64,000 bases of DNA from Acidobacteriota bacterium (GTDB lineage: Bacteria; Acidobacteriota; UBA6911). Of this stretch, positions 40,639 to 64,000 are shown piece by piece; position 1 is the stretch's first letter; the number at the start of each line of letters is the position of its first letter. The stretch is from assembly GCA_963664705.1 (NCBI GenBank), contig OY761556.1, forward strand, positions 4,736,001 to 4,800,000. Reading direction: 5' to 3'. Position numbers and translations under genes: made by a program. The notes under the pieces were generated by a model. That model was not told the DNA's origin and searched no databases. It saw only the letters and a program-made list of their open reading frames with translations.

Positions 40639-40781
40639 GGATTGTGGTCTGTTGAAATCGGCCCAAGATTTGTGGAGTTCGTGACAGAGGCATGGGCAAT
40701 AAATCTGTCGCGCACTCCACAAATCACCCTCAATAACTGGAGACCGCAGCTCTCGGATGAACTCACGATTTGCCCTGACCT

Positions 40782-50902: not shown

Positions 50903-53881
50903 TCACTTCCTCAAACAAGAGCGTATCGCCTCAATGACCGCTTCGGAAGGTCCGCTTTTGATCAGATATGCGACGGCGCCGGCTTTACGTATGGCTGCGG
51001 ATTCCTCGCCTTCGTTAAACATGGACAGGCCAATGATTTGTATTTCAGGCATTTCCTGATGAATGATTCTGGTGGCTTGAATCCCGTCCATTCCTGGCAT
51101 GCCAATATCCATCAGAATCACATCAGGCCGAATCTTCCGGACCAATTTCACCGCAGATTCACCATCCGACGCCTCTCCCACGATCTTGATATCCGGCTCC
51201 GCTCCCAGCAAACCAGCCAAACCCTGTCGCATGACCATATGATCGTCTACCAGGGCCACGCGTATTCTTGCAGTTGAATCGGGTTCCTCGGCAGATGCCA
51301 CCGCAACAGAGATCTCTGATTTCGGGCTTTTCCCAACTTCGGAAGATTGCTCCGGCATAATGGCATACGGAGAAATGAGACGAAATCGGCTGCCTTTTCC
51401 TACGGCACTTTCCATCTCAATTCTCCCGCCCAGGTAACTGAGGCGCTCACTGATACTGAAGAGCCCCATACCCGTGCTCTTGTCCTCCCTCGTGCGGAGC
51501 TCATCGGGATCGAATCCCGCACCCTCATCGGCTACTTCCACCTGAATCTGTCCATCAAGCTGGATAACTTCAACGTCCGCCGTCCTGACACCGGCATGCT
51601 TTACAATGTTGAACAGAAGCTCACGAACAGACTGGAATAGCAGGACACTTATTTCCTCGGAAGCACGCTGCATAGGTTCCTGGCAAGCCAGCCTCACAGT
51701 GAGGCCATGTTTGGTCTGCATCCATTTGGCCAACCACTCCAGCGCAGGAAGGAATCCGCCTTTGTGCAGAATAGGGGGACTTAATTCGGCGGTAAGCGAC
51801 CTGGATGTTTCGATCGAGTCATCAATAAGGCTTGCTACGGCTGCGGCCCTTTCCTGTACATCGCCGCCGCGCTCCAGGAGAGCAAGGCTGAATTTGGCTG
51901 CGGCCAGTGTCTGTTGCAGCCCGTCGTGAAGCAGCATCGCCAGCCGCTGTCGTTCGCGCTGCTCAGCCAGCGTCAAATCCGCCGCGAGTTGGCGCAGCTG
52001 CCGCGACCGTTGTTCCAATTCGAGCGTGCGCTCCTCCACCCGTTTCTCCAGTGAGTTGGTAAGCTCCTGCAAACGCTGATCGGCCAACTTCCGTGCAGTA
52101 ATATCCATCTGTACACCGTCCCAGACGGTACTGCCGTCGTCCATCCGGCGCGGTCGAGATCGCAGTCGCATCCAGCGCACCTCGCCATCCGGTCGGCGCA
52201 TGGGCACATCCATGTCGAAGTCGGATTGCTCGTGGATGCATCGTGCTTCCTCTGTCATTAATCGCTGGTAATACTCAGGCGGAATCTGCCCGTGCAACGT
52301 ACCGGCATCGCGCAGGGCATCTTCAATGCGGATGCCATTGAGTTTTTCGATTCCGGCACTGAAATAGGTGAATCTTCCCGCAGCACCATCCGAGCGGACA
52401 TATTGATAAACGGCGCTGTCCGGAAGATTGTCGCCAAGCAGACGTAACCGCTCCTCGCTGTCGCGCAGCGCCTCCTCTGCCCGTTTGCGTGCGATCGTAG
52501 CGCTCAGGAACTCGGCTGTCATCAACAGGATGTCTCCCACCGATTCCGAGAATCCCCCGGTACAGGAGGACATCAGCTTCAGCACGCCATAGGATTGGTT
52601 TCCATACCGAAGCGGAACCAGGATCATCGACCGCAAGCCGATTTTTCTGCAAGCCTCGCGGTCAACCCTCGGATCGGTTTCGGTATCGTCGGAACGCATC
52701 AATTCGCCGCTGGTCATGCAACGACCGGACAAACTGCCCGCTACTTTCAGCCGCAGTCCGACAAACCCGGCGGCAATCCCGCTGGCGGCTTCATATACCA
52801 TTTCCTCGCCGTCAGCGATTTCGAGACTGGCGCCTTCCGCGTTGGTAAGCCGGGACATGCGTTCCAGGACCAGTTGCAGCAATCCCTTGTAGTTCGTATC
52901 GGTCCGGGCAATCTCACGCTGTGTGTCCAAAACAGAAGCCAGCCGCTCGGTCTGAGCCTTCAATATCGATTCAGTCCGCTTGCGGTCGGTGATAGTCTGC
53001 TTTTGGTCCGTAATATCGCTGAAAAAGGTTGCCAGCCCCTCTTCCGTGGGATAACAGCGGCAGTCGAACCACCGGTTCAAAGGCTCCGGATAAAAGCATT
53101 CAAATTGCAGCGGCTTCCGTTCCTCCATGGAACGGCGGAAGTTCACTCCAAGGGGCAGATCGTAGGCAGCCGGCCATAGCTCCCACAGAGATTTGCCCAT
53201 AAGTTGACTGCGCGTCATGCGAAAGGCACTGGTTGCGGCTGGATTTACATGGGTATAGCGCCACTCCCGATCAAAAGCGGCAAAGCAGTCGCTCATCTGC
53301 TCCAGAACCGCGGTGGTTCTTGCGTTCGCCAACTGCAAACCTTCTCGCTGCATACGAAGCTGTTGAATCAGTTCCGTTGAGTTTTCAAGTTCGGTAAGAT
53401 CACTCGCCACGACGCATATGCTGGCTCCGTCCGGTTGGTTGAGCACATTGGCGGAGATATGCGCCGGCAGAGAGGCTCCATCCCCGCCGCAGAAAACCAT
53501 CCGTCTTTTAATGGACTCCTTCTGAACATCGAGTAGTAAGGAAGATGCGGCCTCTTTATCGGTTTCGGCCACGAATTCGCCGAGATTGTGGCCTACAATC
53601 TCCGAATTCGAACATCGGATGAATTGGCTGAACTGGGCATTGCAGAAGAGAATCCTTCCATCAAAAGTAAGGGTGAATGCCGCCTCCTTCATGGTTTCCA
53701 CGATCAGGCGATAGATGGATTCCGTGCCAAACAGCGAAAATACCTGATCCCCGCTGGGGCCCGAAACGATAATGGCGTCCACTTCGCCTTGGCGAATTGC
53801 CCGTAGTGTTTCTTCCGCCTCATGAAGGCGCGTCTGCAAATCCTCAATCAATTCCTGTTTGGATTGCCTCTTGTCCAGCAT
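50903..53881 (-). CDS. Kai-linked PAS-PAS-GAF-PAS hybrid histidine kinase (HisKA_3-HATPase-REC)
   Basis: AEETLRAIRQGEVDA N-terminus; LHDGLQQ; NIVKHA; REC; starts 10 nt after kaiB. Confidence 0.92.
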   Translation of the reverse strand: MLDKRQSKQELIEDLQTRLHEAEETLRAIRQGEVDAIIVSGPSGDQVFSLFGTESIYRLIVETMKEAAFTLTFDGRILFCNAQFSQFIRCSNSEIVGHNLGEFVAETDKEAASSLLLDVQKESIKRRMVFCGGDGASLPAHISANVLNQPDGASICVVASDLTELENSTELIQQLRMQREGLQLANARTTAVLEQMSDCFAAFDREWRYTHVNPAATSAFRMTRSQLMGKSLWELWPAAYDLPLGVNFRRSMEERKPLQFECFYPEPLNRWFDCRCYPTEEGLATFFSDITDQKQTITDRKRTESILKAQTERLASVLDTQREIARTDTNYKGLLQLVLERMSRLTNAEGASLEIADGEEMVYEAASGIAAGFVGLRLKVAGSLSGRCMTSGELMRSDDTETDPRVDREACRKIGLRSMILVPLRYGNQSYGVLKLMSSCTGGFSESVGDILLMTAEFLSATIARKRAEEALRDSEERLRLLGDNLPDSAVYQYVRSDGAAGRFTYFSAGIEKLNGIRIEDALRDAGTLHGQIPPEYYQRLMTEEARCIHEQSDFDMDVPMRRPDGEVRWMRLRSRPRRMDDGSTVWDGVQMDITARKLADQRLQELTNSLEKRVEERTLELEQRSRQLRQLAADLTLAEQRERQRLAMLLHDGLQQTLAAAKFSLALLERGGDVQERAAAVASLIDDSIETSRSLTAELSPPILHKGGFLPALEWLAKWMQTKHGLTVRLACQEPMQRASEEISVLLFQSVRELLFNIVKHAGVRTADVEVIQLDGQIQVEVADEGAGFDPDELRTREDKSTGMGLFSISERLSYLGGRIEMESAVGKGSRFRLISPYAIMPEQSSEVGKSPKSEISVAVASAEEPDSTARIRVALVDDHMVMRQGLAGLLGAEPDIKIVGEASDGESAVKLVRKIRPDVILMDIGMPGMDGIQATRIIHQEMPEIQIIGLSMFNEGEESAAIRKAGAVAYLIKSGPSEAVIEAIRSCLRK

Positions 53882-53891
53882 AGCCGCAGGC

Positions 53892-54239
53892 CTATTTCTT
53901 GGGACGAAGATCAAGTCCGACCAGAATCCGTTCCTGATCCGTCAGGTCGCCAATGAATCTTCGTAAGGGTTGAGGTAATTTTCTAATCAGCGTCGGGGCT
54001 GCAATGATTTGTTCACCTGCGGCCAACGTCGGTTGCTTGTAGATGTCGATGATCTGCAGGTCATAGCGACCTTTGAGATGCTGCTCGCAAATCTCGCTTA
54101 TGGATGTTATCGCAGCCGACGACCGCCGGTTGATGCCTGCCACATACAATCTGAGGATGTACGTTTGTTTGGATGTGGTTTTTTTCAGATCTTTCTCGAA
54201 TTCGGCTGCGCTCTTAATAGGTTTCGCTTTTTTGGGCAT
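53892..54239 (-). CDS. kaiB: KaiB family protein
   Basis: LRLYVAG, IIAAPTLIRKLPQPLRRFIGDL. Confidence 0.95.
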   Translation of the reverse strand: MPKKAKPIKSAAEFEKDLKKTTSKQTYILRLYVAGINRRSSAAITSISEICEQHLKGRYDLQIIDIYKQPTLAAGEQIIAAPTLIRKLPQPLRRFIGDLTDQERILVGLDLRPKK

Positions 54240-54330: not shown

Positions 54331-56028
54331 TCAGATTCTCGCCTTCGTCATAGTTTTCCGATCCGTTGAAATCATCTGCTGCCGATCGGATTCCTCCTGC
54401 TTTGTGATCTTCAGTTCGTTGTCGAGGCTCTGGAGTTTCTGTGTAATGACCGCCGCCTGAGCCTGCAGATTCGCGCGTTCCTGTTCGAGTTCGCGTTGTC
54501 GTTGCTCGGAAGCCTGCTGGTCCGCAAGCACCCGGGCCCGATCGTGTGCCTCCTGAACAAGGCGCGCAGAACCGGTCAGCACCTGGCCGGGACCGACATA
54601 CACCTTGGTCAACCGAATACCATGATCGGTAAGCTGGAACTCCCGCATCTGATTGGAATGAGACATCCCGCGGCTTTTGAGAAGATACAACAACCGGTTT
54701 CGTTCGCCATTGGTTTCCAGCATCCGGACAAGAAGCCAGGTGTCCATCAACGAAGAAATCGCGACATCGCTTTTCTCGAGAGATTCACCGCCTTCCGTGA
54801 GGCTGGTCAGAACCGAGGTGATCTGTCGTGTCTTCAGAAAATCCACGATTCTCGTCATCATTGCGCGAATCTCGATCTCCTCACCAATGGAAGAGAGATT
54901 GGTGACAGGATCCATCACGACGCCGGCGGGATTGAATTCAGTGATCAATTGATGGATTCGGGCCAGATGCATCTCCAATCCACACATTGTTGGTCGCACG
55001 GAATGAAAGAGGAGCAGGTTCCTTTTTCTCCACTTGTCCAAATCGATGCCGATTGATTTCATATTCCGGATAATTTGGTCCGGAGCTTCTTCAAAAGACA
55101 AATAAGCGCACTTTTCGCCTCGGCCACACATCCCGTCGACGAATGCGGCGGCGATACTCGATTTCCCCGTGCCTGCGGTTCCGGATATCAGGACGCTCGT
55201 GCCCCGAAAGTAACCTTTGCCTCCCATCATGGCATCCAACTCTGGAATGCCCGTTGAAACCCGTTCGGTGGTTACAGGATAATCCAGGCCCAGCGAACTG
55301 ATTGGGAGAACGGACAACCCATGTTCATTGATTAAGGTAGGATATTCATTGGTGCCATGCCGGGAGCCGCGGTATTTCACAATACGCAAACGCCGCGTGG
55401 CTACCTGATTGCTAACCCGATGATCCAGGAAGATAACGCAGTCACTGACGTATTCTTCAATGCCGTGGCGGGTCAGCGTATTTTGGCCCTGCTCGCCCGT
55501 TATGATGACTGTCACGCCCTTATTCTTGAGCCAGCGAAAGAGGCGACGCAATTCAGCCCTGAGAATGCTTTCATTCGGCAATCCCGCAAAGAGAGCTTCG
55601 ATAGTATCCAGAACCACGCGCCTGGCGCCCAACTCCTCAATCATGAGATTCAGGCGAACAAAGAGGCCTTCGAGATCATATTCCCCAGTCTCCTCGATTT
55701 CGCTGCGCTCTATATGCACATGATCAATCGCCATCTTTTTCCGGGCGATCAGCCGACGCACATCAAAACCCAGGGAAGCCACATTCTGGATTAATTCCGC
55801 GGCAGTCTCCTCAAAGGACATGAAGACGCCGGGTTCGTCAAACTCCTGAGCGCCTCGAACAATGAACTCCATTGCCAGAAGTGTCTTACCGCTGCCGGCG
55901 CTGCCGCAGATCAATGTTGGTCTGCCACAGGGCAGTCCGCCATCGGTGATTTCGTCGAGACCGGCAATGCCTGTCGGGCATTTTTCAATACCCGGAGAAA
56001 CACTGCGATGCGCGCTTTTTTTGGCCAT
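54331..56028 (-). CDS. kaiC: Double-domain KaiC with C-terminal coiled coil
   Basis: GSAGSGKT and GTAGTGKS Walker A; SFEE x2; KYRGS; ISSLMDTW phosphosite region. Confidence 0.96.
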   Translation of the reverse strand: MAKKSAHRSVSPGIEKCPTGIAGLDEITDGGLPCGRPTLICGSAGSGKTLLAMEFIVRGAQEFDEPGVFMSFEETAAELIQNVASLGFDVRRLIARKKMAIDHVHIERSEIEETGEYDLEGLFVRLNLMIEELGARRVVLDTIEALFAGLPNESILRAELRRLFRWLKNKGVTVIITGEQGQNTLTRHGIEEYVSDCVIFLDHRVSNQVATRRLRIVKYRGSRHGTNEYPTLINEHGLSVLPISSLGLDYPVTTERVSTGIPELDAMMGGKGYFRGTSVLISGTAGTGKSSIAAAFVDGMCGRGEKCAYLSFEEAPDQIIRNMKSIGIDLDKWRKRNLLLFHSVRPTMCGLEMHLARIHQLITEFNPAGVVMDPVTNLSSIGEEIEIRAMMTRIVDFLKTRQITSVLTSLTEGGESLEKSDVAISSLMDTWLLVRMLETNGERNRLLYLLKSRGMSHSNQMREFQLTDHGIRLTKVYVGPGQVLTGSARLVQEAHDRARVLADQQASEQRQRELEQERANLQAQAAVITQKLQSLDNELKITKQEESDRQQMISTDRKTMTKARI

Positions 56029-56119
56029 CCTCGAATCCTCGGTTTAGGCGTTGGGGCGCAAGTTGCAGAAAGGGAGCTTGCGCCCGGCTGGAATCATTTT
56101 CAAACACAATAAAGCTCAT

Positions 56120-56139
56120 ATTGTTGTAGTGCCAACAAT
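56120..56139. promoter_or_regulatory. Crp-type palindromic box upstream of kaiC
   Basis: ATTGTTG-TAGTGC-CAACAAT. Confidence 0.65.
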
Positions 56140-56231
56140 TTAGCAATCAAAAAGGCTCGCTTCGCCTTCATCCCAGGCAGCGCGAGAAGGATGAACCGGT
56201 ATAAGTTGAAGGCAATCATATATTTAATGAC

Positions 56232-56821
56232 TTTGAACCGCGAAGACCTCGAAGACCGCAAAGATCTTTTGGCTAATTTTGCTGTAATGTATAAAGCATC
56301 AAGGATGGAATCCAGCATATGATCTGGCAAGAACGATAACCGCAAAACCTGCAAAAATATTTTCTTTGCGGTCTTCGCGGTTAGTGGGGCTACTAATTCG
56401 GTCAAGTCAGGTTTAATGACTTTTGTCTAAAACCGTGGTTCAGCACCTTCATTTAGTGGGCAAACTCTGGTGTGCAAAGGATAAGATTAGGATCCGACGA
56501 TCAAATCAGGTTCCATAAATAAATGGCGCTGATTAGTTTTTGTATTTGAACCGCGAAGACCTCGAAGACCGCAAAGATTTTTTGGCTAATTTTGCTGTAA
56601 TGTATGAAGCATCCAGGATGGAATCCATCATATGATCTGGCAAGAACGATAACCGCAAAACCTGCAAAAATATTTTCTTTGCGGTCTTCGAGGTCTTCGC
56701 GGTTAGTGGGGCTACTAATTCGGTCAAGTCAGGTTTAATGACTTTTGTCTAAAACCGTGGTTCAGCACCTTCATTTAGTGGGCAAACTTTGGTGTGCAAA
56801 GGATAAGATTAGGATCCGACG
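56232..56821. repeat. Direct duplication (~270 bp x2) containing a MITE-like inverted-repeat element
   Basis: Copies 56232-56499 and 56545-56821; copy 2 has a perfect 29-bp IR (56549-56577 / 56676-56704). Confidence 0.92.
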
Positions 56822-56824
56822 CCA

Positions 56825-57637
56825 TTACTCAAAAACTTCACCAGGGGTTGGCCGGTAGGAACGGGCTGGTCGAGATCGGCCGATGCGGGTACCACCCATA
56901 CCAGCGACACCGGAAATCCGGAGAGTCCTGGTGTAAGCATCCATGTCCCTTTTGTGCGTCCAATAACACTCACACGACATGGAGGCAATCCGGCGCTTAT
57001 CAGTGATCTTTATCAAACGCTGACGATATGAAATCAGCCCGCTTGATTTCAGAGCCCCCAGCTCCAAGCTGACGGTTGAGCGATTCACTCCAAGCATGAG
57101 GGACAGGAATTCGTGCGTGACAGGGTAACTGTCATCCTCGGCCCAATCCGACGTCATCAGAAGCCAACGACAAAGCCTCTGTTGCACCGTGTGGAATCTA
57201 TTGCAGAGCACGAGTTGCGTGGATTGATTGTGTAGCTGCTGAAGGAACACCAGCGAGCTTTTGCAGTAAGCTGTGTCGTTCCCCAAATGACGTTTGAGGG
57301 TAGCGGCACTGATCTTAAGGGCCTCGCCAGGAATCTGTACGATATATCGGTGAGCCGAATACTGGTGACCGGTAAGGACTTCGACAGGAAGCCCACCTTC
57401 TCTGCCGACCGCGCCCACTTCAATACTATGTCCGGTTGAGCTCGCAGCAATAATGGATATGAGGCCTGAGTTCAAAAACAGAACCGAGTCGACCGTATCG
57501 CCTGCCTTGAAAAGTACGTGGCCCGGGGGAAGCAAAATGACCTCAAGATCCGGCAGTATTTTCTCCAAAACTGCCTTGGGTAGCGACAGCAGCATCCTGT
57601 TACGAATCGCGGGGCTACTCATTTTATAGCCAGACAT
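56825..57637 (-). CDS. Crp/Fnr family transcriptional regulator
   Basis: NRMLLSLP, VGREG, CNRFHTVQQRLCRWLL, THEFLSLMLGVNRSTVS HTH, SCECY. Confidence 0.93.
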   Translation of the reverse strand: MSGYKMSSPAIRNRMLLSLPKAVLEKILPDLEVILLPPGHVLFKAGDTVDSVLFLNSGLISIIAASSTGHSIEVGAVGREGGLPVEVLTGHQYSAHRYIVQIPGEALKISAATLKRHLGNDTAYCKSSLVFLQQLHNQSTQLVLCNRFHTVQQRLCRWLLMTSDWAEDDSYPVTHEFLSLMLGVNRSTVSLELGALKSSGLISYRQRLIKITDKRRIASMSCECYWTHKRDMDAYTRTLRISGVAGMGGTRIGRSRPARSYRPTPGEVFE

Positions 57638-57769
57638 CGAACCCTCATATCCAAAGAGTTATAAATGCCGAGGGGGTGAGAGGGGGAACCGGCTGCTGCT
57701 TCGAGACCAAAACCGACCTACCCCATGCAATAAATCGGGGCTAACTTTATCACCTTTTTGACAACGACG

Positions 57770-57787
57770 CTGTTGGCCGGCCAACAG
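57770..57787. promoter_or_regulatory. Crp-type palindromic box upstream of crp
   Basis: Perfect 18-bp palindrome CTGTTG-GCCGGC-CAACAG. Confidence 0.65.
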
Positions 57788-57978
57788 GTCCAATTATTTC
57801 TTTTTGAAAATTTGATCTGGGAATGGAACCTTTGCACCGATTGATCTTACCGGACTGAGGCTAGCAAAATGGAGAGGTAAACCGGCGTTTCGTTCCTGAA
57901 GTGCAAATGCAAGGCACGAGGCAGGGGGGAGTTCTTTGTCTCAGGCAGAACAAAGCCCGCACCCACTTCCCTGCAAAC

Positions 57979-58296
57979 CTATTTCCTGGGCCGCAGGTCC
58001 AATCCAACCAAAACCCGCTCGACGTTTGACAAATCGCCTATGATCTTTCGAACCGGCACCGGCAGCTTTCGGACAAGAGTCGGGACTGCGAGAATCTGGT
58101 CGCCTCTGGCAAGTTGAGGATTTTCCAGAAGATCTATCACCTCTATTCGATAGTGGCCATCCAGATGCTCCTCGCAAATCCTCTTTAAATTCGCGAAAGC
58201 AGTCAAAGCCCTGGCAGTGCGGCCTGCTATGTAGAGCCGGAGATCCCAGGTCTCCATCTGCTTTTTGATTTTATTGCCTGATTTTTTTTGGGGCAT
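57979..58296 (-). CDS. kaiB: Second KaiB family protein
   Basis: [32 protein letters not shown]; start 58296 or 58314. Confidence 0.95.
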
Positions 58297-58374
58297 GGTA
58301 GTTCCCAAATCCATCTGAAGCCGTTGATCGTAGATGCACGATTATGGGTACTAGTTTTCTGCGCGAATCCACAT

Positions 58375-58390
58375 TGTAGTTGTCCCGACA
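58375..58390. promoter_or_regulatory. Degenerate Crp-type box upstream of the second kaiB
   Basis: TGTAG-TTGTCC-CGACA. Confidence 0.45.
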
Positions 58391-58497
58391 ACAAGTAGGC
58401 AACGAAATAATGTGCACCACATAATTATGGTGTTGTCTGTCCTGGGCTGCAGGAATGAAGCCCTCTGGGACGGCGGCGGCCACGGGCAGCCTTAAAA

Positions 58498-59373
58498 TCA
58501 GTTCTCGGTGGGCAATTTAAGGACTTCCTCGATGACAAGCATTTCCAAAGGCGTTTTGCGCGCATCGAACTTGAGCCCCAGTTTTTCCGCCGCACCGAAA
58601 AGAGAAACCGGAGACCCCGTATCGAGCATTTGCAATGCGCTCGGTGGAAGAACCACGCCACGATTAACCGCCGCGCGCACTAACATGTTTCGGTAATCCT
58701 CTTCGGTAATATCAAACGCAAAATCGTAGCGCCCCGTGAGATTGGTCATGTCGATGATTGGGCGATCCAGGAATGAATCCAGGCTGGTGGCCAGCAGCGT
58801 CATGGTCAGCTTTTTGCCTTCGAAACGATTGTTCGCGAATGTATACGAGGCACCCTGTCCAATATTGACCGAGATCCCCTGGCTGGATCCGGTTCCGCTC
58901 GCCTCAAAGGCTGCCGGACGTTCATGATTTTCCTGGTTGGAATCGGGTAGGCTTTCATTGATCTTGAGTCCGCCCTTGCTAACTTCAAGGACATATACCG
59001 GGAATTCCTTTTTTTCCCGATGCGTCTTCAGATGAAATCTTTCAATCAGCAATGCCTGCAGCATTTCAGGTATTTGACTTGGTGGAACGCCTTCCGGGAT
59101 TTTCGCAGCAATATCAAATCGCTCGGAATTCAGCCAATCCGGTCCCGAGATCTGATAACTTTTCAACCGGTAGGCGATCCCAACATAATCCTTCAAGGCC
59201 ATTCTGCCGTGGATTTGCGCACCATCGATGCGAATGCCCAGCGTTACAGACTGCGGATCCGATTGCCCCTTTGCCGGCCGGATCGACGCCACCTCAAAAG
59301 CAGGACCGGTCTGGGCAATAGCAACGCCCGCAAGAAGGAGTAACAGGCCGAAGACAATAACCATTCGCAACAT
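58498..59373 (-). CDS. TIGR03435-like Acidobacterial secreted protein
   Basis: AFEVASIRP, GPDWLNSERFDIAAK, MLQALLIERF, DRPIIDMTNLTGRYDF, C-terminal PTEN. Confidence 0.9.
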   Translation of the reverse strand: MLRMVIVFGLLLLLAGVAIAQTGPAFEVASIRPAKGQSDPQSVTLGIRIDGAQIHGRMALKDYVGIAYRLKSYQISGPDWLNSERFDIAAKIPEGVPPSQIPEMLQALLIERFHLKTHREKKEFPVYVLEVSKGGLKINESLPDSNQENHERPAAFEASGTGSSQGISVNIGQGASYTFANNRFEGKKLTMTLLATSLDSFLDRPIIDMTNLTGRYDFAFDITEEDYRNMLVRAAVNRGVVLPPSALQMLDTGSPVSLFGAAEKLGLKFDARKTPLEMLVIEEVLKLPTEN

Positions 59374-59634
59374 AGTTCTCTTTCCTTTGGAAAGAACATC
59401 CAGGCCCGGATAACTAAAGCTCCCCTAAGTGGCCGGCGGATCGCGTCTCTCCCGACATTTCATTCCTATAGTACGTTGTCCCTCGCAGGAAGGTCTCAGG
59501 TGTGTGGCGTATTTTTATCCGCGAACAATTTCATCAGCGGCTTCCGTGCGTATGATGCCCCTGCGGTGAATTTGCCACAACAGCGGGAAATAACGCTCTT
59601 CCCCGTTGTTCTCGCAGGACAACCATTATATTGT

Positions 59635-60624
59635 ATGAACTACAAACCGGATCTGGAAGTGGCGGCACCCCATTCTTTGCCATGTTGTTCCCGTTGGAGG
59701 AAGTTTTTGGTCAGGCAGGCAGGGTACTCCCTGGAGCATATTGCTTTTGAAGGCAAAACTGTAAACCGTTCGAGTCGTTTGCGGCATGCGCCGGCACACG
59801 CCGTCGTCGCCGGCATGGACTCGGACGATCTCACGCAACAGGATCGCTGCGAAGAACCCATCCCCTCGATTTTGCAGGCGGCTGGTTTATCAGAGAAGGC
59901 TTACCGCGCCGCTTCCATGAACCGGCGGCTGAATGCATGCCTGCGGTCCTTGAAAGCAACAACAGTCCCGGAAGCCGCCCATCTCCTCATCAAGCACCCG
60001 GAGCTGAAGGAACCTGCGCTGGACGCTCTCCTGATCGGGGTTACCGAATTTTTCCGTGACCGGCCGGTTTTCGATGCACTCAGCCGGCTTATCGAGACAG
60101 ATCTTCCCCAAAGGACCGGGACTTTGCGTGTCTGGAGTGCAGGGTGCTCCAGCGGAGCGGAATTGTACAGCATGGCCTTTCTCCTTGCAGAAGCCGGGCT
60201 TCTTCACCGGAGCATTCTGTTGGGAACCGACTGCAGGAAATCGGCCATTCGCGAAGCCAGGGCTGGACTCTACAGCGCATCCTGTCTGCAAACCCTGGAT
60301 CCATTGCTTCGAGAGAAATATTTCCGGAAGGTCGGGACGCAATGGCAGGTCCTGGATTCCGTCCGTTCCCATGTTCGGTGCCGGACCCAGGACTTGCTTT
60401 CGGTCTGCGAAAAAGGGCCCTGGGACATCATCCTCTGGAGAAACATGGCCATTTATTTCGAGACAAACGCCAGCCACCAGATTTGGAGCCGCATTACCAA
60501 AGAAATGCGTCCCGGCGGCCTGATCGTCACAGGAAAGGCAGAGCGCCCGCCCCATTCCATCGGTCTTAGTACTCTAAGCAGAAGTATCTATCGCCGGGAA
60601 AAGGGCAGCGGGCGATTGAGATAA
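59635..60624 (+). CDS. cheR: CheR-family methyltransferase (start uncertain, 59635-59815)
   Basis: IGVTEFFRD, VWSAGCSSGAELYS, DIILWRNMAIYF, G..E. Confidence 0.85.
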   Translation: MNYKPDLEVAAPHSLPCCSRWRKFLVRQAGYSLEHIAFEGKTVNRSSRLRHAPAHAVVAGMDSDDLTQQDRCEEPIPSILQAAGLSEKAYRAASMNRRLNACLRSLKATTVPEAAHLLIKHPELKEPALDALLIGVTEFFRDRPVFDALSRLIETDLPQRTGTLRVWSAGCSSGAELYSMAFLLAEAGLLHRSILLGTDCRKSAIREARAGLYSASCLQTLDPLLREKYFRKVGTQWQVLDSVRSHVRCRTQDLLSVCEKGPWDIILWRNMAIYFETNASHQIWSRITKEMRPGGLIVTGKAERPPHSIGLSTLSRSIYRREKGSGRLR

Positions 60625-60639
60625 GTTGGAGATTTCAGA

Positions 60640-63600
60640 ATGATCCGAAACACAAGGATAGTGACCAGTTTTGTTGCGGTCCTGATTGTAGTCAGCCTTT
60701 TTGGGCTGGCCTCCTACATCAACACCCAACGCCTGATCAGCGGCAACAAGTGGTTACTGCACACACACCAGGTAGTCGAAAACCTCCAGGAAATCCTGTC
60801 TGTACTCAAGGATGCTGAAACCGGACAACGCGGCTATATCCTTTCAGGCCAGGATCACTACCTGGAACCCTATAACATCGCGACCAGCCGCATTGAAAGC
60901 CGATTTGCAATATTGGCTGAACTGATCCAGGACGATGCCGTCCAGCAATCGAACCTTGATCGCCTCCAACGGATGACTGCCTTGAAGCTGGATGAACTGA
61001 AACAGACGATTGAGCTGCGGCGCCGCTCCGGTCTGGACGCGGCCATGCCCATCATCCTCAGCGACCGCGGCAAAAATACAATGGACGACATCCGGGGTCT
61101 CGTCTCGCGGATGGACGAACGCGAACGGGCAGATCTTCAGCTGCAGCAAAAAGATTCCGAGAGCAGAGCGCGGATGACCATGTGGACAATCGCAGCGGGA
61201 CTGCCATTGTCCTTATTGGTTCTGGCGGTAGCGGCCCTCACGCTGACAGGCAGCGGCCTATATACCGATGCAATTGCCGGGCTGGTCACCAAACGATCCC
61301 TGTGGGAAAAGAGATTTCTACGCTATTTCCTTGCCATCGTCGCTGCCGTCCTGGCAGGAATTCTCCGGCAGTGGCTTCTGCATTTTGGCCCCTTGCCGCT
61401 ATACATTACGTTCTACCCCGCCGTTCTGCTGGTGGCCACGATCAGCGGCGGAGGCCCCGGCATCATCACTACTGTCTTGTCGGGATTCATTACCCTCTAC
61501 TATTTCATTACACCCCATGGACAGTTTTCAATCGAATCTCCGTCGGATCTGCTGGCTTTGGCCATCTTTATCGGAACCAACCTGACCCTGTGTGTGATTG
61601 CCGAACGCCTTAGACGGGCCCGTTGGGCCGAGGCCATGAGCATTGCAAAACAGCAGGAATCCGAGGAACTGGCGAAAAAGAATGAAGAGTTGGTCCAGCA
61701 GTCGGAAGAGCTCCTGCAACAATCGGAAGAGCTGGCTCAGCAAAACGAGGAACTCCAGTCCCAGTCCGAGGAAATACAAACGCTCAACACCGAGCTGACC
61801 GGTCGGGAAAACATGCTTCGGAAACTTCTCGAAGCCGCCCGGTTGCATCACTCCGAGGAGTCCGTCCTGAAGGAGGTATGCTCCGCAGCCAAAGATATCC
61901 TGGGCTCGGCAGCTTCAGCGGTTGTTATATGCGAAAAGAAAGGAGAGGCGTTGTTCATCCGCGCGCAAGCCGGATCACGGGAAACACCCAAGCCATGGGC
62001 TATCGAGGGATCCTTTCCGGGGCTGGTGATGCAGGAAGGACGCACGGCCTGCCTGAACGATTCCTCGCTGCGCCCGGACCTGAAGCTTCTCCAGGTTCCC
62101 GAGGCAACGCCATTCCAGTCCGCCCTGTCAACGCCGCTGCGTGTCGGCAGCGAGAATTTCGGAGCCGTCACCGTCTATGGCCTGCATAAACAGCAGTGGA
62201 CCGAAGAACAGTTTCGTCTGGTTGAATGGCTTGCCACACAATGCGGCCATATTTTAGAAACTCTCAAATTGCAGGATCAGCTGCGCGCAACAGCCGATCA
62301 GAACCGGCTGCTTTCCGATTTGCTTGAACACTCGGAACAGCCCTTCGGCATCGGTTATCCCGATGGGAGATTGGGTTATGTCAATGCGGCATTTGAGCGT
62401 CTCACCGGATATACAAGGCCAGAGCTTGAAACCATGGACTGGGCCAATGTATTGACGCCTCCACAGTGGCGATCCATCGAGCAGGAAAAGCTCAAAGAAC
62501 TCCAATCCACCGGACAGTCCGCACGCTATGCCAAGGAATATGCTCGAAAGGATGGCACCTGTATTCCCATAGAGCTCCTGGTTCATTTGATCAAAGACGG
62601 CAAGGACCAACCGCTCTACTACTACTCCTTTATCACCGATATTTCGGAACGCAAAAAGACCGAAGCCGAGGTGCAGAAACTCGCGCAGCAGCGTCAGTTG
62701 GCCTTGGATGCGTCCCACCTGGGCTGGTGGCATTTTGATCCGTTGACGCAGGTATCCTCCTGGGATGTGCGTTACCGCGAAATTTTTGGCGTATCCGGAC
62801 ACAGCCGCCCCAACGAGGAAATACTCAAGCGTCTCCATCCCGAAGACCTTCCCGGCGTCTGGGCCAAAGTTGAAGCCGCTCTGAATCCGGCGGATCCCAA
62901 GCCCTATTCGGCCGAATACCGCATTAACCTGCCGGATGGATCCATGAAATGGATCGAAGCCCATGGCGTGGCAACTTTCGACGGTAAAGATTCGCAGCGG
63001 CGCGCAGTGGCCCTTGTCGGCACGGTGGCGGATATTTCCGAACGAAAGCGGGCAGAGGAGTTGCTGCGGGACACCAATACTCTGCTGGAACAGAGAGTGG
63101 AGGAGAGAACAAAAGACCTGGCGCAGCGAGCCGCACAGCTTCGAGCCCTTGCCGGCGAACTGACTATGACCGAGCAGCGCGAAAGAAGTCGCCTGGCCAG
63201 GGTATTGCACGATCATCTGCAGCAACTGCTGGTCGCCGCCAAGTTTCGGCTGGCAATTCTTGGCAAAGGTGCCGAAGATCTGATCAAAAAGGCGATCACC
63301 GAAGTCGAAAGCCTGGTCGACGAATCGATTGCGGCCTCGCGATCCCTGACTGCGGAACTCAGTCCGCCGATCCTTCACGAGGCCGGACTGAAGGAGGGAT
63401 TGGAATGGCTGGCCCGAAGAATGGCGGATAAACAGGGGCTGATCGTGGATCTGGAAATGGAAGATATCGCGCCCTTGCCCGACGATCTGAAGATCATGCT
63501 GTTTGAATCGGTCCGGGAGTTGCTGTTCAACATTGTCAAGCACGCGCATACACATTCCGCATCCCTGAATCTGCGACGGGTAGACGGGCTTCTGCAATTA

Positions 63601-64000
63601 ACCATCTCGGATGAAGGGGATGGCTTCGATCCGAATGCACTGCCGAAACCCGGGGAATCCGGCCATGGATTCGGACTATTCAGTGTTCGGGAGAGACTGG
63701 AGCTTTTTGAGGGAAGCATGGAAATTCAAAGTGCTCCCGCTCAAGGCAGCCGAATCTTTCTGTCTGTCCCGATACCGGAACACTCCATTGCACCCAAGCA
63801 CGTCGATCAGCCCCCAGTGTCGCCGGAAATACCGGTCTTTCAGCAGCGCTCCGGCCCGGCGCCGGATAAAAAGATCCGCGTGCTGCTGGCGGACGATCAC
63901 TCTGTCGTCAGACAGGGGATTGCCGCCATGCTCGGCATGGAGTTGGACATGGAAGTTGTTGGAGGCGCATCCACGGGACATGAGGCGATTGCGCTCGCAG
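60640..64000 (+). CDS. Membrane hybrid histidine kinase CHASE3-DUF4118-like-coiled coil-GAF-PAS-PAS-HisKA_3-HATPase-REC, truncated by the window end
   Basis: Absent from the ORF track (no stop in window); translates MIRNTRIV...DAETGQRGY (CHASE3), YITFYPAVL, LHDHLQQ, NIVKHA, VLLADDH. Confidence 0.92.
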   Translation, partial: MIRNTRIVTSFVAVLIVVSLFGLASYINTQRLISGNKWLLHTHQVVENLQEILSVLKDAETGQRGYILSGQDHYLEPYNIATSRIESRFAILAELIQDDAVQQSNLDRLQRMTALKLDELKQTIELRRRSGLDAAMPIILSDRGKNTMDDIRGLVSRMDERERADLQLQQKDSESRARMTMWTIAAGLPLSLLVLAVAALTLTGSGLYTDAIAGLVTKRSLWEKRFLRYFLAIVAAVLAGILRQWLLHFGPLPLYITFYPAVLLVATISGGGPGIITTVLSGFITLYYFITPHGQFSIESPSDLLALAIFIGTNLTLCVIAERLRRARWAEAMSIAKQQESEELAKKNEELVQQSEELLQQSEELAQQNEELQSQSEEIQTLNTELTGRENMLRKLLEAARLHHSEESVLKEVCSAAKDILGSAASAVVICEKKGEALFIRAQAGSRETPKPWAIEGSFPGLVMQEGRTACLNDSSLRPDLKLLQVPEATPFQSALSTPLRVGSENFGAVTVYGLHKQQWTEEQFRLVEWLATQCGHILETLKLQDQLRATADQNRLLSDLLEHSEQPFGIGYPDGRLGYVNAAFERLTGYTRPELETMDWANVLTPPQWRSIEQEKLKELQSTGQSARYAKEYARKDGTCIPIELLVHLIKDGKDQPLYYYSFITDISERKKTEAEVQKLAQQRQLALDASHLGWWHFDPLTQVSSWDVRYREIFGVSGHSRPNEEILKRLHPEDLPGVWAKVEAALNPADPKPYSAEYRINLPDGSMKWIEAHGVATFDGKDSQRRAVALVGTVADISERKRAEELLRDTNTLLEQRVEERTKDLAQRAAQLRALAGELTMTEQRERSRLARVLHDHLQQLLVAAKFRLAILGKGAEDLIKKAITEVESLVDESIAASRSLTAELSPPILHEAGLKEGLEWLARRMADKQGLIVDLEMEDIAPLPDDLKIMLFESVRELLFNIVKHAHTHSASLNLRRVDGLLQLTISDEGDGFDPNALPKPGESGHGFGLFSVRERLELFEGSMEIQSAPAQGSRIFLSVPIPEHSIAPKHVDQPPVSPEIPVFQQRSGPAPDKKIRVLLADDHSVVRQGIAAMLGMELDMEVVGGASTGHEAIALA

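Follow-up and report, generated by a model that had tools for sequence, protein, structure and literature searches.

A candidate autoregulated Crp-family regulon at a KaiA-less kai cluster of an Acidobacteriota bacterium

A 64,000-nucleotide stretch of an Acidobacteriota bacterium genome (assembly GCA_963664705.1, contig OY761556.1, positions 4,736,001 to 4,800,000; referred to below as the window) carries a kai gene cluster, a gene for a Crp/Fnr-family regulator, here called crp, and three Crp-type boxes, located upstream of kaiC, of crp, and of a displaced copy of kaiB. According to the sequence comparisons reported here, the Crp dimer encoded next to these boxes likely operates all three, thus autoregulating its own gene and controlling both the kaiC-kaiB-kinase operon and the displaced kaiB. 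The predicted system is an input regulon with autoregulation rather than a demonstrated clock loop. The elements that enter this reading are the following (positions are those of the window).

56122..56137, no strand assigned: box upstream of kaiC, TGTTGTAGTGCCAACA (TGTTGGCACTACAACA on the transcribed strand), matching the pattern TGTHG-N6-CDACA
57771..57786, no strand assigned: box preceding crp, TGTTGGCCGGCCAACA, a predicted site of autoregulation with its centre at -41.5, supported by the pattern match and the orthologue L093
58375..58390, no strand assigned: box upstream of the displaced kaiB, TGTAGTTGTCCCGACA (TGTCGGGACAACTACA on the transcribed strand), a pattern match
57744..57749, minus strand: predicted extended -10 element of the crp promoter, TG-a-TAAAGT, within the block AAAAA.GTGATAAAGTTA conserved in L093
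56825..57637, minus strand: Crp/Fnr-family regulator of 270 amino acids with recognition helix NRSTVSLE (PF13545, 50.8 bits, cut-off 27)

The first-pass annotation placed the boxes at 56122, 57771, and 58375, and exact matches and start codons both agree with it: the distances to ATG are 94 bp for kaiC (ATG at 56028), 134 bp for crp (57637), and 79 bp to the second ATG of kaiB (58296) or 61 bp to its first (58314). TGTHG-N6-CDACA has exactly 3 matches in the window with 0.37 expected, and at least 3 are found in 1 of 100 shuffles, the pattern being post hoc, as it was derived from these same three sites.

Comparative evidence comes from other members of the regulator's subfamily. Among 189 compared loci (one unpublished locus excluded), 166 had 300 bp of upstream sequence, and TGT-N10-ACA is found within 300 bp upstream of 71 of these genes, versus 6/166 coding and 10/140 far-upstream controls. 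Other spacers between N4 and N16 give 3-26 matches upstream of the same 166 genes, and the classical TGTGA-N6-TCACA gives none (0/166). Unseeded palindromic expectation maximization on 149 non-redundant upstream regions reports TMTGTgcG-N4-CgcACAKA in ~53% of them. In the closest orthologue with available DNA, L093 (67%), GACCTGTTGGC.GGCC.ACA and the AAAAA block that holds the predicted -10 element are retained amid otherwise diverged sequence. TGT-N10-ACA, enriched and conserved upstream of the subfamily's own genes as an autoregulated operator should be, is therefore supported as its self-site. Since related genomes are not independent, p-values from such comparisons are overstated.

The box also varies with the protein. 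The recognition helix of the window regulator reads N185-R-S-T-V-S-L-E; R186 is invariant in 188/188 subfamily members, while the next residue is Glu in 78 and another residue in 110, so an RSTVS-type helix is common in the subfamily and not special to this protein. According to 139 non-redundant upstream regions, G occupies box position 4 in 54/74 half-sites of the Glu class versus 5/56 of the non-Glu class. Counting each 70%-identity cluster once gives 8/9 versus 4/16; clustering at 55% leaves too few Glu clusters for this comparison. Such covariation fits the code of CRP, in which, in the part of the source consulted, E181 contacts the base-pair mate of G4 (PMC10187061). Thus, the altered specificity that had been attributed to RSTVS holds as a property of the subfamily, in which loss of Glu tracks loss of G4. 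In the mechanism that we propose, Arg186 would read the TGT/ACA ends, like R180 in CRP, Ser187 in place of Glu would relax position 4 from G to T, C, or A, and the dimer would be able to bind all three boxes.

As for the sign of regulation, the TAAAGT hexamer begins 22 nt past the crp box; relative to the predicted start, the box is thus centred at -41.5, where a class II activator would bind. Among 63 subfamily sites, TAnnnT occurs at offsets 22-23 in 11 cases downstream and in 14 on the opposite side, versus mostly 0-3 per offset between 15 and 45; a second downstream peak, with 7 sites, lies at offset 14. Positive autoregulation is thus the likeliest sign, and Crp would activate its own promoter from -41.5. 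At the other two boxes, GAAAAT at offset 21 (kaiC) and TAGTAC at offset 22 (kaiB) would fit activation. Sigma-70-like candidates overlap both of these boxes, so repression there is possible as well; the scan for sigma-70 promoters and terminators that yields them, however, is at chance level (3 versus 2.4 and 5 versus 3.5). Crp would set transcription of kaiC-kaiB-kinase and of the displaced kaiB, and their co-activation is a guess. On the other side of the crp box, at offset 20-25, tttGAAAAT (57806-57811, plus strand) is similar to the hexamer that follows the kaiC box. Either it is a chance match or it may serve as a divergent promoter running antisense to the displaced kaiB.

Whether the kaiC and kaiB boxes belong to the same regulon is addressed by matrix ranking. 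A 16-bp matrix was built from 27 non-Glu sites of other genomes, excluding L093; among 1,015,938 intergenic positions of the genome it places the crp box at rank 8, the kaiC box at 29, and the kaiB box at 37. The ranks are 1, 5, and 9 with half-sites only, versus 71, 287, and 706 with the Glu-class matrix. The half-site level of the boxes is reached by 10 intergenic sites at the true spacer versus 1-8 at nine other spacers. At the level of the weakest box (11.5 bits, a threshold chosen afterwards), 20 of 3109 predicted promoter regions have a site, kaiC and kaiB both among them; these regions derive from rough gene calls that miss crp and a multiheme cytochrome gene.

An alternative is that the crp box is the sole real operator and the other two either resemble it by chance or were left behind by the rearrangement that relocated kaiB. 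In its favour, the conserved footprint is limited to the crp box, the genome holds 35 matches to the pattern, the boxes of kaiC and kaiB are weaker and drop in rank once flanks are counted, and in close relatives kaiC2 operons do without both this Crp and the box. However, two extra hits in neighbouring promoters have a chance of ~(20/3109)^2 = 4e-5, the regions upstream of kaiB, crp, and kaiC have no other shared similarity that would hint at duplication, and boxes recur before kaiC in other lineages. We regard this alternative as unlikely. That the first kaiB lies outside the operon yet has a box of its own suggests selection on co-regulation.

The size of the regulon is less certain. At 10 bits the true spacer yields 88 sites and other spacers 74-105, so sites are not generally in excess, which suggests a small regulon, and 34 other intergenic positions score at least as high as the weakest box; the description of the regulon as self-contained is thus plausible only. 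Other top-scoring sites in the genome have no common function, and two of them are inside the multiheme cytochrome gene. Within the window, a further site at 40706-40721 scores 12.1 bits with the non-Glu matrix, 376 bp before an operon encoding an outer-membrane efflux protein and a resistance-nodulation-division (RND) transporter; it may be background.

Several results weigh against control of all three boxes by this Crp. TGTHG-N6-CDACA is not enriched genome-wide (35 seen versus ~40 expected from half-site counts), so the scan that the first-pass annotation proposed gives no excess over background; neither does the N6 spacer stand out from other spacers (14-82), and the intergenic fraction of the pattern is 0.31 at N6, yet 0.35 at N9. 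The local box count by itself is therefore weak proof, and support comes from the comparative tests. With a 24-bp non-Glu matrix that includes flanks, the crp, kaiC, and kaiB boxes rank 37, 57, and 433, the kaiB box falling most, and a 24-bp family-wide matrix scores the window boxes poorly (best pre-kaiC site -2.9 bits) because they lack the flanking T at -2. Three other close homologues, L094-L096 (44-50% identity), have no box in the available sequence, of which L094 and L096 offer only a short length. Orthologous kaiC or kaiB promoters adjoining this Crp were not recovered, so the direct footprint is confined to the crp box. The genome also encodes many sigma-54 activators and four other Crp/Fnr proteins. 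Eight full kaiC2 loci from the same genus, family, and class, in which kaiC is followed directly by 1-3 kaiB genes and then the kinase, contain no strict box, so the arrangement is not conserved in the closest kaiC2 clusters. A phylum sample shows no co-occurrence between kaiC2 and this Crp (3/20 versus 42/379, p 0.48). Sites of at least 9 bits by the non-Glu matrix precede kaiC in 1/10 carriers and 2/27 non-carriers of the subfamily, G174 being one of these two, and 13/19 kaiC loci of Burkholderiales lack any site reaching 10 bits in the nearest 450 bp. Thus, as far as sequence can tell, of the earlier proposal that Crp autoregulates and co-controls the kai units, autoregulation agrees with the self-site and co-control with the high ranks of the kaiC and kaiB boxes, and conservation of the arrangement among close kaiC2 clusters fails.

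Among 60 relatives, only G028 has a subfamily member, at 34%, and this Crp was not found in the genomes of close-kin kaiC2 clusters. According to the family-wide matrix, kaiC2 upstream regions reach a shuffle p<=0.05 in 4/10 carriers and 0/25 non-carriers, with equal coding controls; this count leaves out distant KaiCs, and the two groups differ in GC content. Burkholderiales (250 genomes, the order of G484) have the subfamily in 16/17 kaiC carriers versus 76/233 other genomes, without correction for genome size. In 6/19 of their kaiC loci (4/17 without G484), a site reaching 10 bits is found no more than 450 bp from the kaiC start, versus 2/182 control windows taken from 400 kb of the same genomes. 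The gene order box-crp-kaiC is found in L157 and G733, and subfamily genes lie within ~4 kb of kaiC in G662, G492, and G484. The Crp-kai link is thus recurrent but optional. In one of these loci, L348 (G484:C32:9986-10657), a subfamily Crp domain is part of a 629-aa open frame directly after kaiC-kaiB, and this predicted fusion protein may replace the kinase in that operon.

It has also to be considered that the boxes are real and are read by another protein, either a Crp/Fnr paralogue, e.g., the one with a Clr-like non-Glu helix TRPRVGV, or a NifA-like sigma-54 activator recognizing TGT-N10-ACA. Such paralogues exist, and the genome gives 32 NifA-like matches, ~25 of them strong. Furthermore, a 12-bit box precedes kaiC in G174 and G044, both of which lack this subfamily; the G174 box, TGT-N10-ACA, is shared by kaiC and the divergently oriented gene of a different non-Glu Crp. 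However, the motif follows the genes and the helix residue of this subfamily, the other paralogues have no TGT-N10-ACA upstream of their own genes, and Clr requires C at position 6, where all six half-sites carry G or T. A NifA-type site was rejected, as no -24/-12 element is found in the three intergenic regions and the nifA model scores below its cut-off. Another reader is therefore distinctly improbable.

A second, different Crp subfamily (LFNSSEKRLAR ... TRSRV ... VVLHD) is found beside kaiC clusters in four genomes, with members L393, L395, and L397 (G174:C41), L340 (G034), L061 (G047), and L062 (G045). Crp-family genes thus seem, from their genomic positions, to have been recruited to kai operons repeatedly. 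G044 has a strict TGTAG-N6-CGACA (L012:2998-3013) ~65-80 bp before a distant kaiC (41%), for which two non-Glu Crp proteins with helices NRPHVS and NRPYLS are candidate readers.

The regulator itself belongs to the Crp/Fnr superfamily, combining an N-terminal cyclic-nucleotide-type beta-barrel with a C-terminal Crp helix-turn-helix domain. PF00027 scores 26.6 bits, slightly under its cut-off of 27.5; the AlphaFold model (mean predicted local distance difference test score, pLDDT, 87.7) superimposes on Mycobacterium tuberculosis CRP (4a2u) with Z 20.2 and root mean square deviation 2.9 over 216 aligned residues, and Foldseek and VIA matches likewise give a Crp fold. The best PDB sequence match has E 1.2e-13, i.e., there is no close solved structure, and no NCBIfam model scores above cut-off. 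The subfamily, with at least 3060 homologues and the signature QxxxCNxxH ... LGxxR ... CxCY, is widespread and has no name; 311 records are plasmids, chiefly of rhizobia and Burkholderiales. This genome has one copy.

The regulator probably does not sense cAMP, since in the alignment FGEL and PRTS of GlxR, for the Gly-Glu and Arg-Ser/Thr of the phosphate-binding cassette, fall on non-matching columns; the window residues there are P84-V85 and Q92-Y93, and Arg is present in 28/188 members. In alignment A2, 37/37 homologues have C145, H149, C222, and C224, which sit close to the hinge between the domains and to the C-terminus, and so do 187-188 of 188 loci, although C145 and H149 belonged to the search pattern for most of the latter. 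Together they could form a Cys3His metal or redox sensor. Residues 241-270 make up a low-confidence Gly/Arg/Ser-rich tail of ~30 aa, which the nearest clade (P0002-P0008) shares and most subfamily members lack.

The remaining features of the locus are listed below.

54331..56028, minus strand: kaiC of KaiC2 type, 565 amino acids, with a C-terminal extension and SS at the phosphosite position (NF006799, 715.8 bits, cut-off 408)
53892..54239, minus strand: second kaiB (PF07689), 91 bp after kaiC
50903..53914, minus strand: hybrid kinase directly after the second kaiB, PAS-PAS-GAF-PAS-HisKA_3-HATPase-REC by Pfam domains
57979..58314, minus strand: displaced kaiB (PF07689), orthologue of the usual operon's first kaiB, relocated upstream of crp
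56232-56499 and 56545-56821, no strand assigned: a tandem pair of copies (95% alike) of a dispersed repeat that forms a hairpin, lying between crp and kaiC

The minus strand is the coding strand of all kai-cluster genes and of crp, and the order of transcription is a TIGR03435-family gene, kaiB, crp, the two repeat copies, kaiC, kaiB, and the PAS-GAF hybrid kinase. The gaps of 341 bp between kaiB and crp and 796 bp between crp and kaiC are compatible with three separate transcription units, and the second kaiB is likely part of the kaiC transcript. The usual order in related operons is kaiC-kaiB-kaiB-kinase: the first kaiB after kaiC is the closer relative of the displaced kaiB in 32/33 of them, and the last kaiB that of the window's second kaiB in 22/23 operons with at least two. 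The position of the hybrid kinase, the presumed Kai output, is matched in related kai operons.

KaiC has two domains and is nearer KaiC2 than KaiC1, with TIGR02655 below cut-off; its best PDB match is 8dba (E 5.6e-191), which we take to be the Rhodobacter sphaeroides protein, versus E 1e-92 for cyanobacterial KaiC. KaiB is present, and KaiA (PF07688) was not found in the 98%-complete genome, the Synechococcus elongatus control being positive. The locus thus has the composition of a KaiA-less KaiC2/KaiB2 system.

The repeat is outside the regulon. It is ~277 bp long with 29-bp perfect inverted arms (hairpin z -10.8), gives 235 blastn lines genome-wide, and in places forms tandem arrays, e.g., at genome positions 5193400-5195100; it resembles a miniature inverted-repeat transposable element or a repetitive extragenic palindrome, and Rfam gives zero matches over 55900-58600, hairpin repeats included. 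Contigs of one study's sequencing run break at the repeat, so the tandem copy number is read from this assembly alone; a second study's run consists of short pieces and has no footprint. Upstream, at 59476-64000 on the plus strand, are a cheR-like gene and a large hybrid kinase gene, with two further PAS kinases past the window end. A cheR-like gene and large kinase follow the kai operon on the same strand in G029, G024, G034, and G047; here they lie upstream and inverted, which indicates that the kai island has been rearranged.

In the favoured reading, Crp would act as a transcriptional input switch of a KaiA-less KaiBC timer or stress module. The first-pass annotation spoke of a transcriptional loop, which reduces to Crp autoregulation. 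In a true feedback loop, the Kai state would act on Crp directly or via the hybrid kinase and so make transcription of kaiB and kaiC oscillate. The separate boxes of kaiC and the first kaiB would permit tuning of the KaiB:KaiC ratio, crp does lie inside the cluster, and crp genes flank kai operons in several lineages. However, Crp has no receiver domain, KaiA was not found, most examined kaiC2 operons function without this Crp, and no path of feedback from Kai to Crp was identified, which makes such a loop very improbable. A broader idea, which we consider a long shot, is that the Cys/His Crp subfamily is the transcriptional arm of KaiA-less KaiBC timers in several phyla, here setting the KaiB:KaiC ratio through separate promoters and gated by Kai output; if true, a Kai-gated Crp would close a transcription-translation feedback loop, through which a timer lacking KaiA might sustain itself.

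Little is settled about what turns on KaiA-less kaiBC operons outside cyanobacteria, and this locus offers a candidate regulator, an operator, and three promoters, while the Burkholderiales cases belong to culturable lineages. The comparisons also supply a large Crp subfamily with a predicted operator and with a rule linking helix residue to base. Autoregulated Crp regulons are ordinary; what is new is the kai target and the subfamily motif. In the open-access literature nothing was found on a kai and Crp regulon or on the motif, which may stand in subscription journals, RegPrecise, or supplements.

Compared with Escherichia coli CRP/CAP (TGTGA-N6-TCACA, helix RETVGR), the regulator has the same fold, 16-bp TGT-N10-ACA geometry, and first helix Arg, and the crp promoter is spaced like class II promoters, for which PMC10187061 gives 22 bp to the second -10 base. 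In contrast, identity is ~15-17%, equivalents of E181 and R185 are missing, box positions 4-5 are T/C/A-G rather than G-A, and the cAMP pocket is not kept. Assignment to CRP/CAP proper is rejected, as the RExxR helix is absent (RSTVSL) and the classical site precedes none of the subfamily genes.

Sinorhizobium meliloti Clr (sites TGTT-N8-AACA, later HGTYHC-N4-GRWACA; helix RPKVNR) is similar in its non-Glu helix, relaxed position 4, and outer geometry, and 2 of 3 window boxes fit TGTT-N8-AACA. Clr, however, binds cAMP and cGMP and requires C6/G11, read by Lys197, whereas the window half-sites carry G, T, G, G, G, and T at position 6 and the helix is RSTVSL, so the regulator is not a Clr. Myxococcus xanthus MrpC (TGTYN8RAC), according to the parts of PMC4320627 and PMC8844925 consulted, is likewise a Crp-family autoregulator, and the crp and kaiC boxes fit its published consensus, the sole basis of this comparison; the kaiB box is one base off, and MrpC is a negative autoregulator with no known ligand and a global developmental regulator.

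As for the kai genes, the order kaiC-kaiB-PAS kinase without KaiA (PMC4794148, PMC3164672) and the SS phosphosites described for KaiC2 (PMC5520375) are common to the KaiC2/KaiB2 operons of Rhodopseudomonas palustris, Rhodobacter sphaeroides, and Legionella pneumophila, as far as the consulted parts of these sources go. Such operons are tied there to hourglass timing or stress resistance, and "Crp" is absent from the main text of the four papers compared. In the same sources, Legionella kai transcripts are regulated by growth phase and one promoter is predicted for the three kai genes of R. palustris, whereas in the window the first kaiB stands apart from the operon and a Crp-type box precedes every unit.

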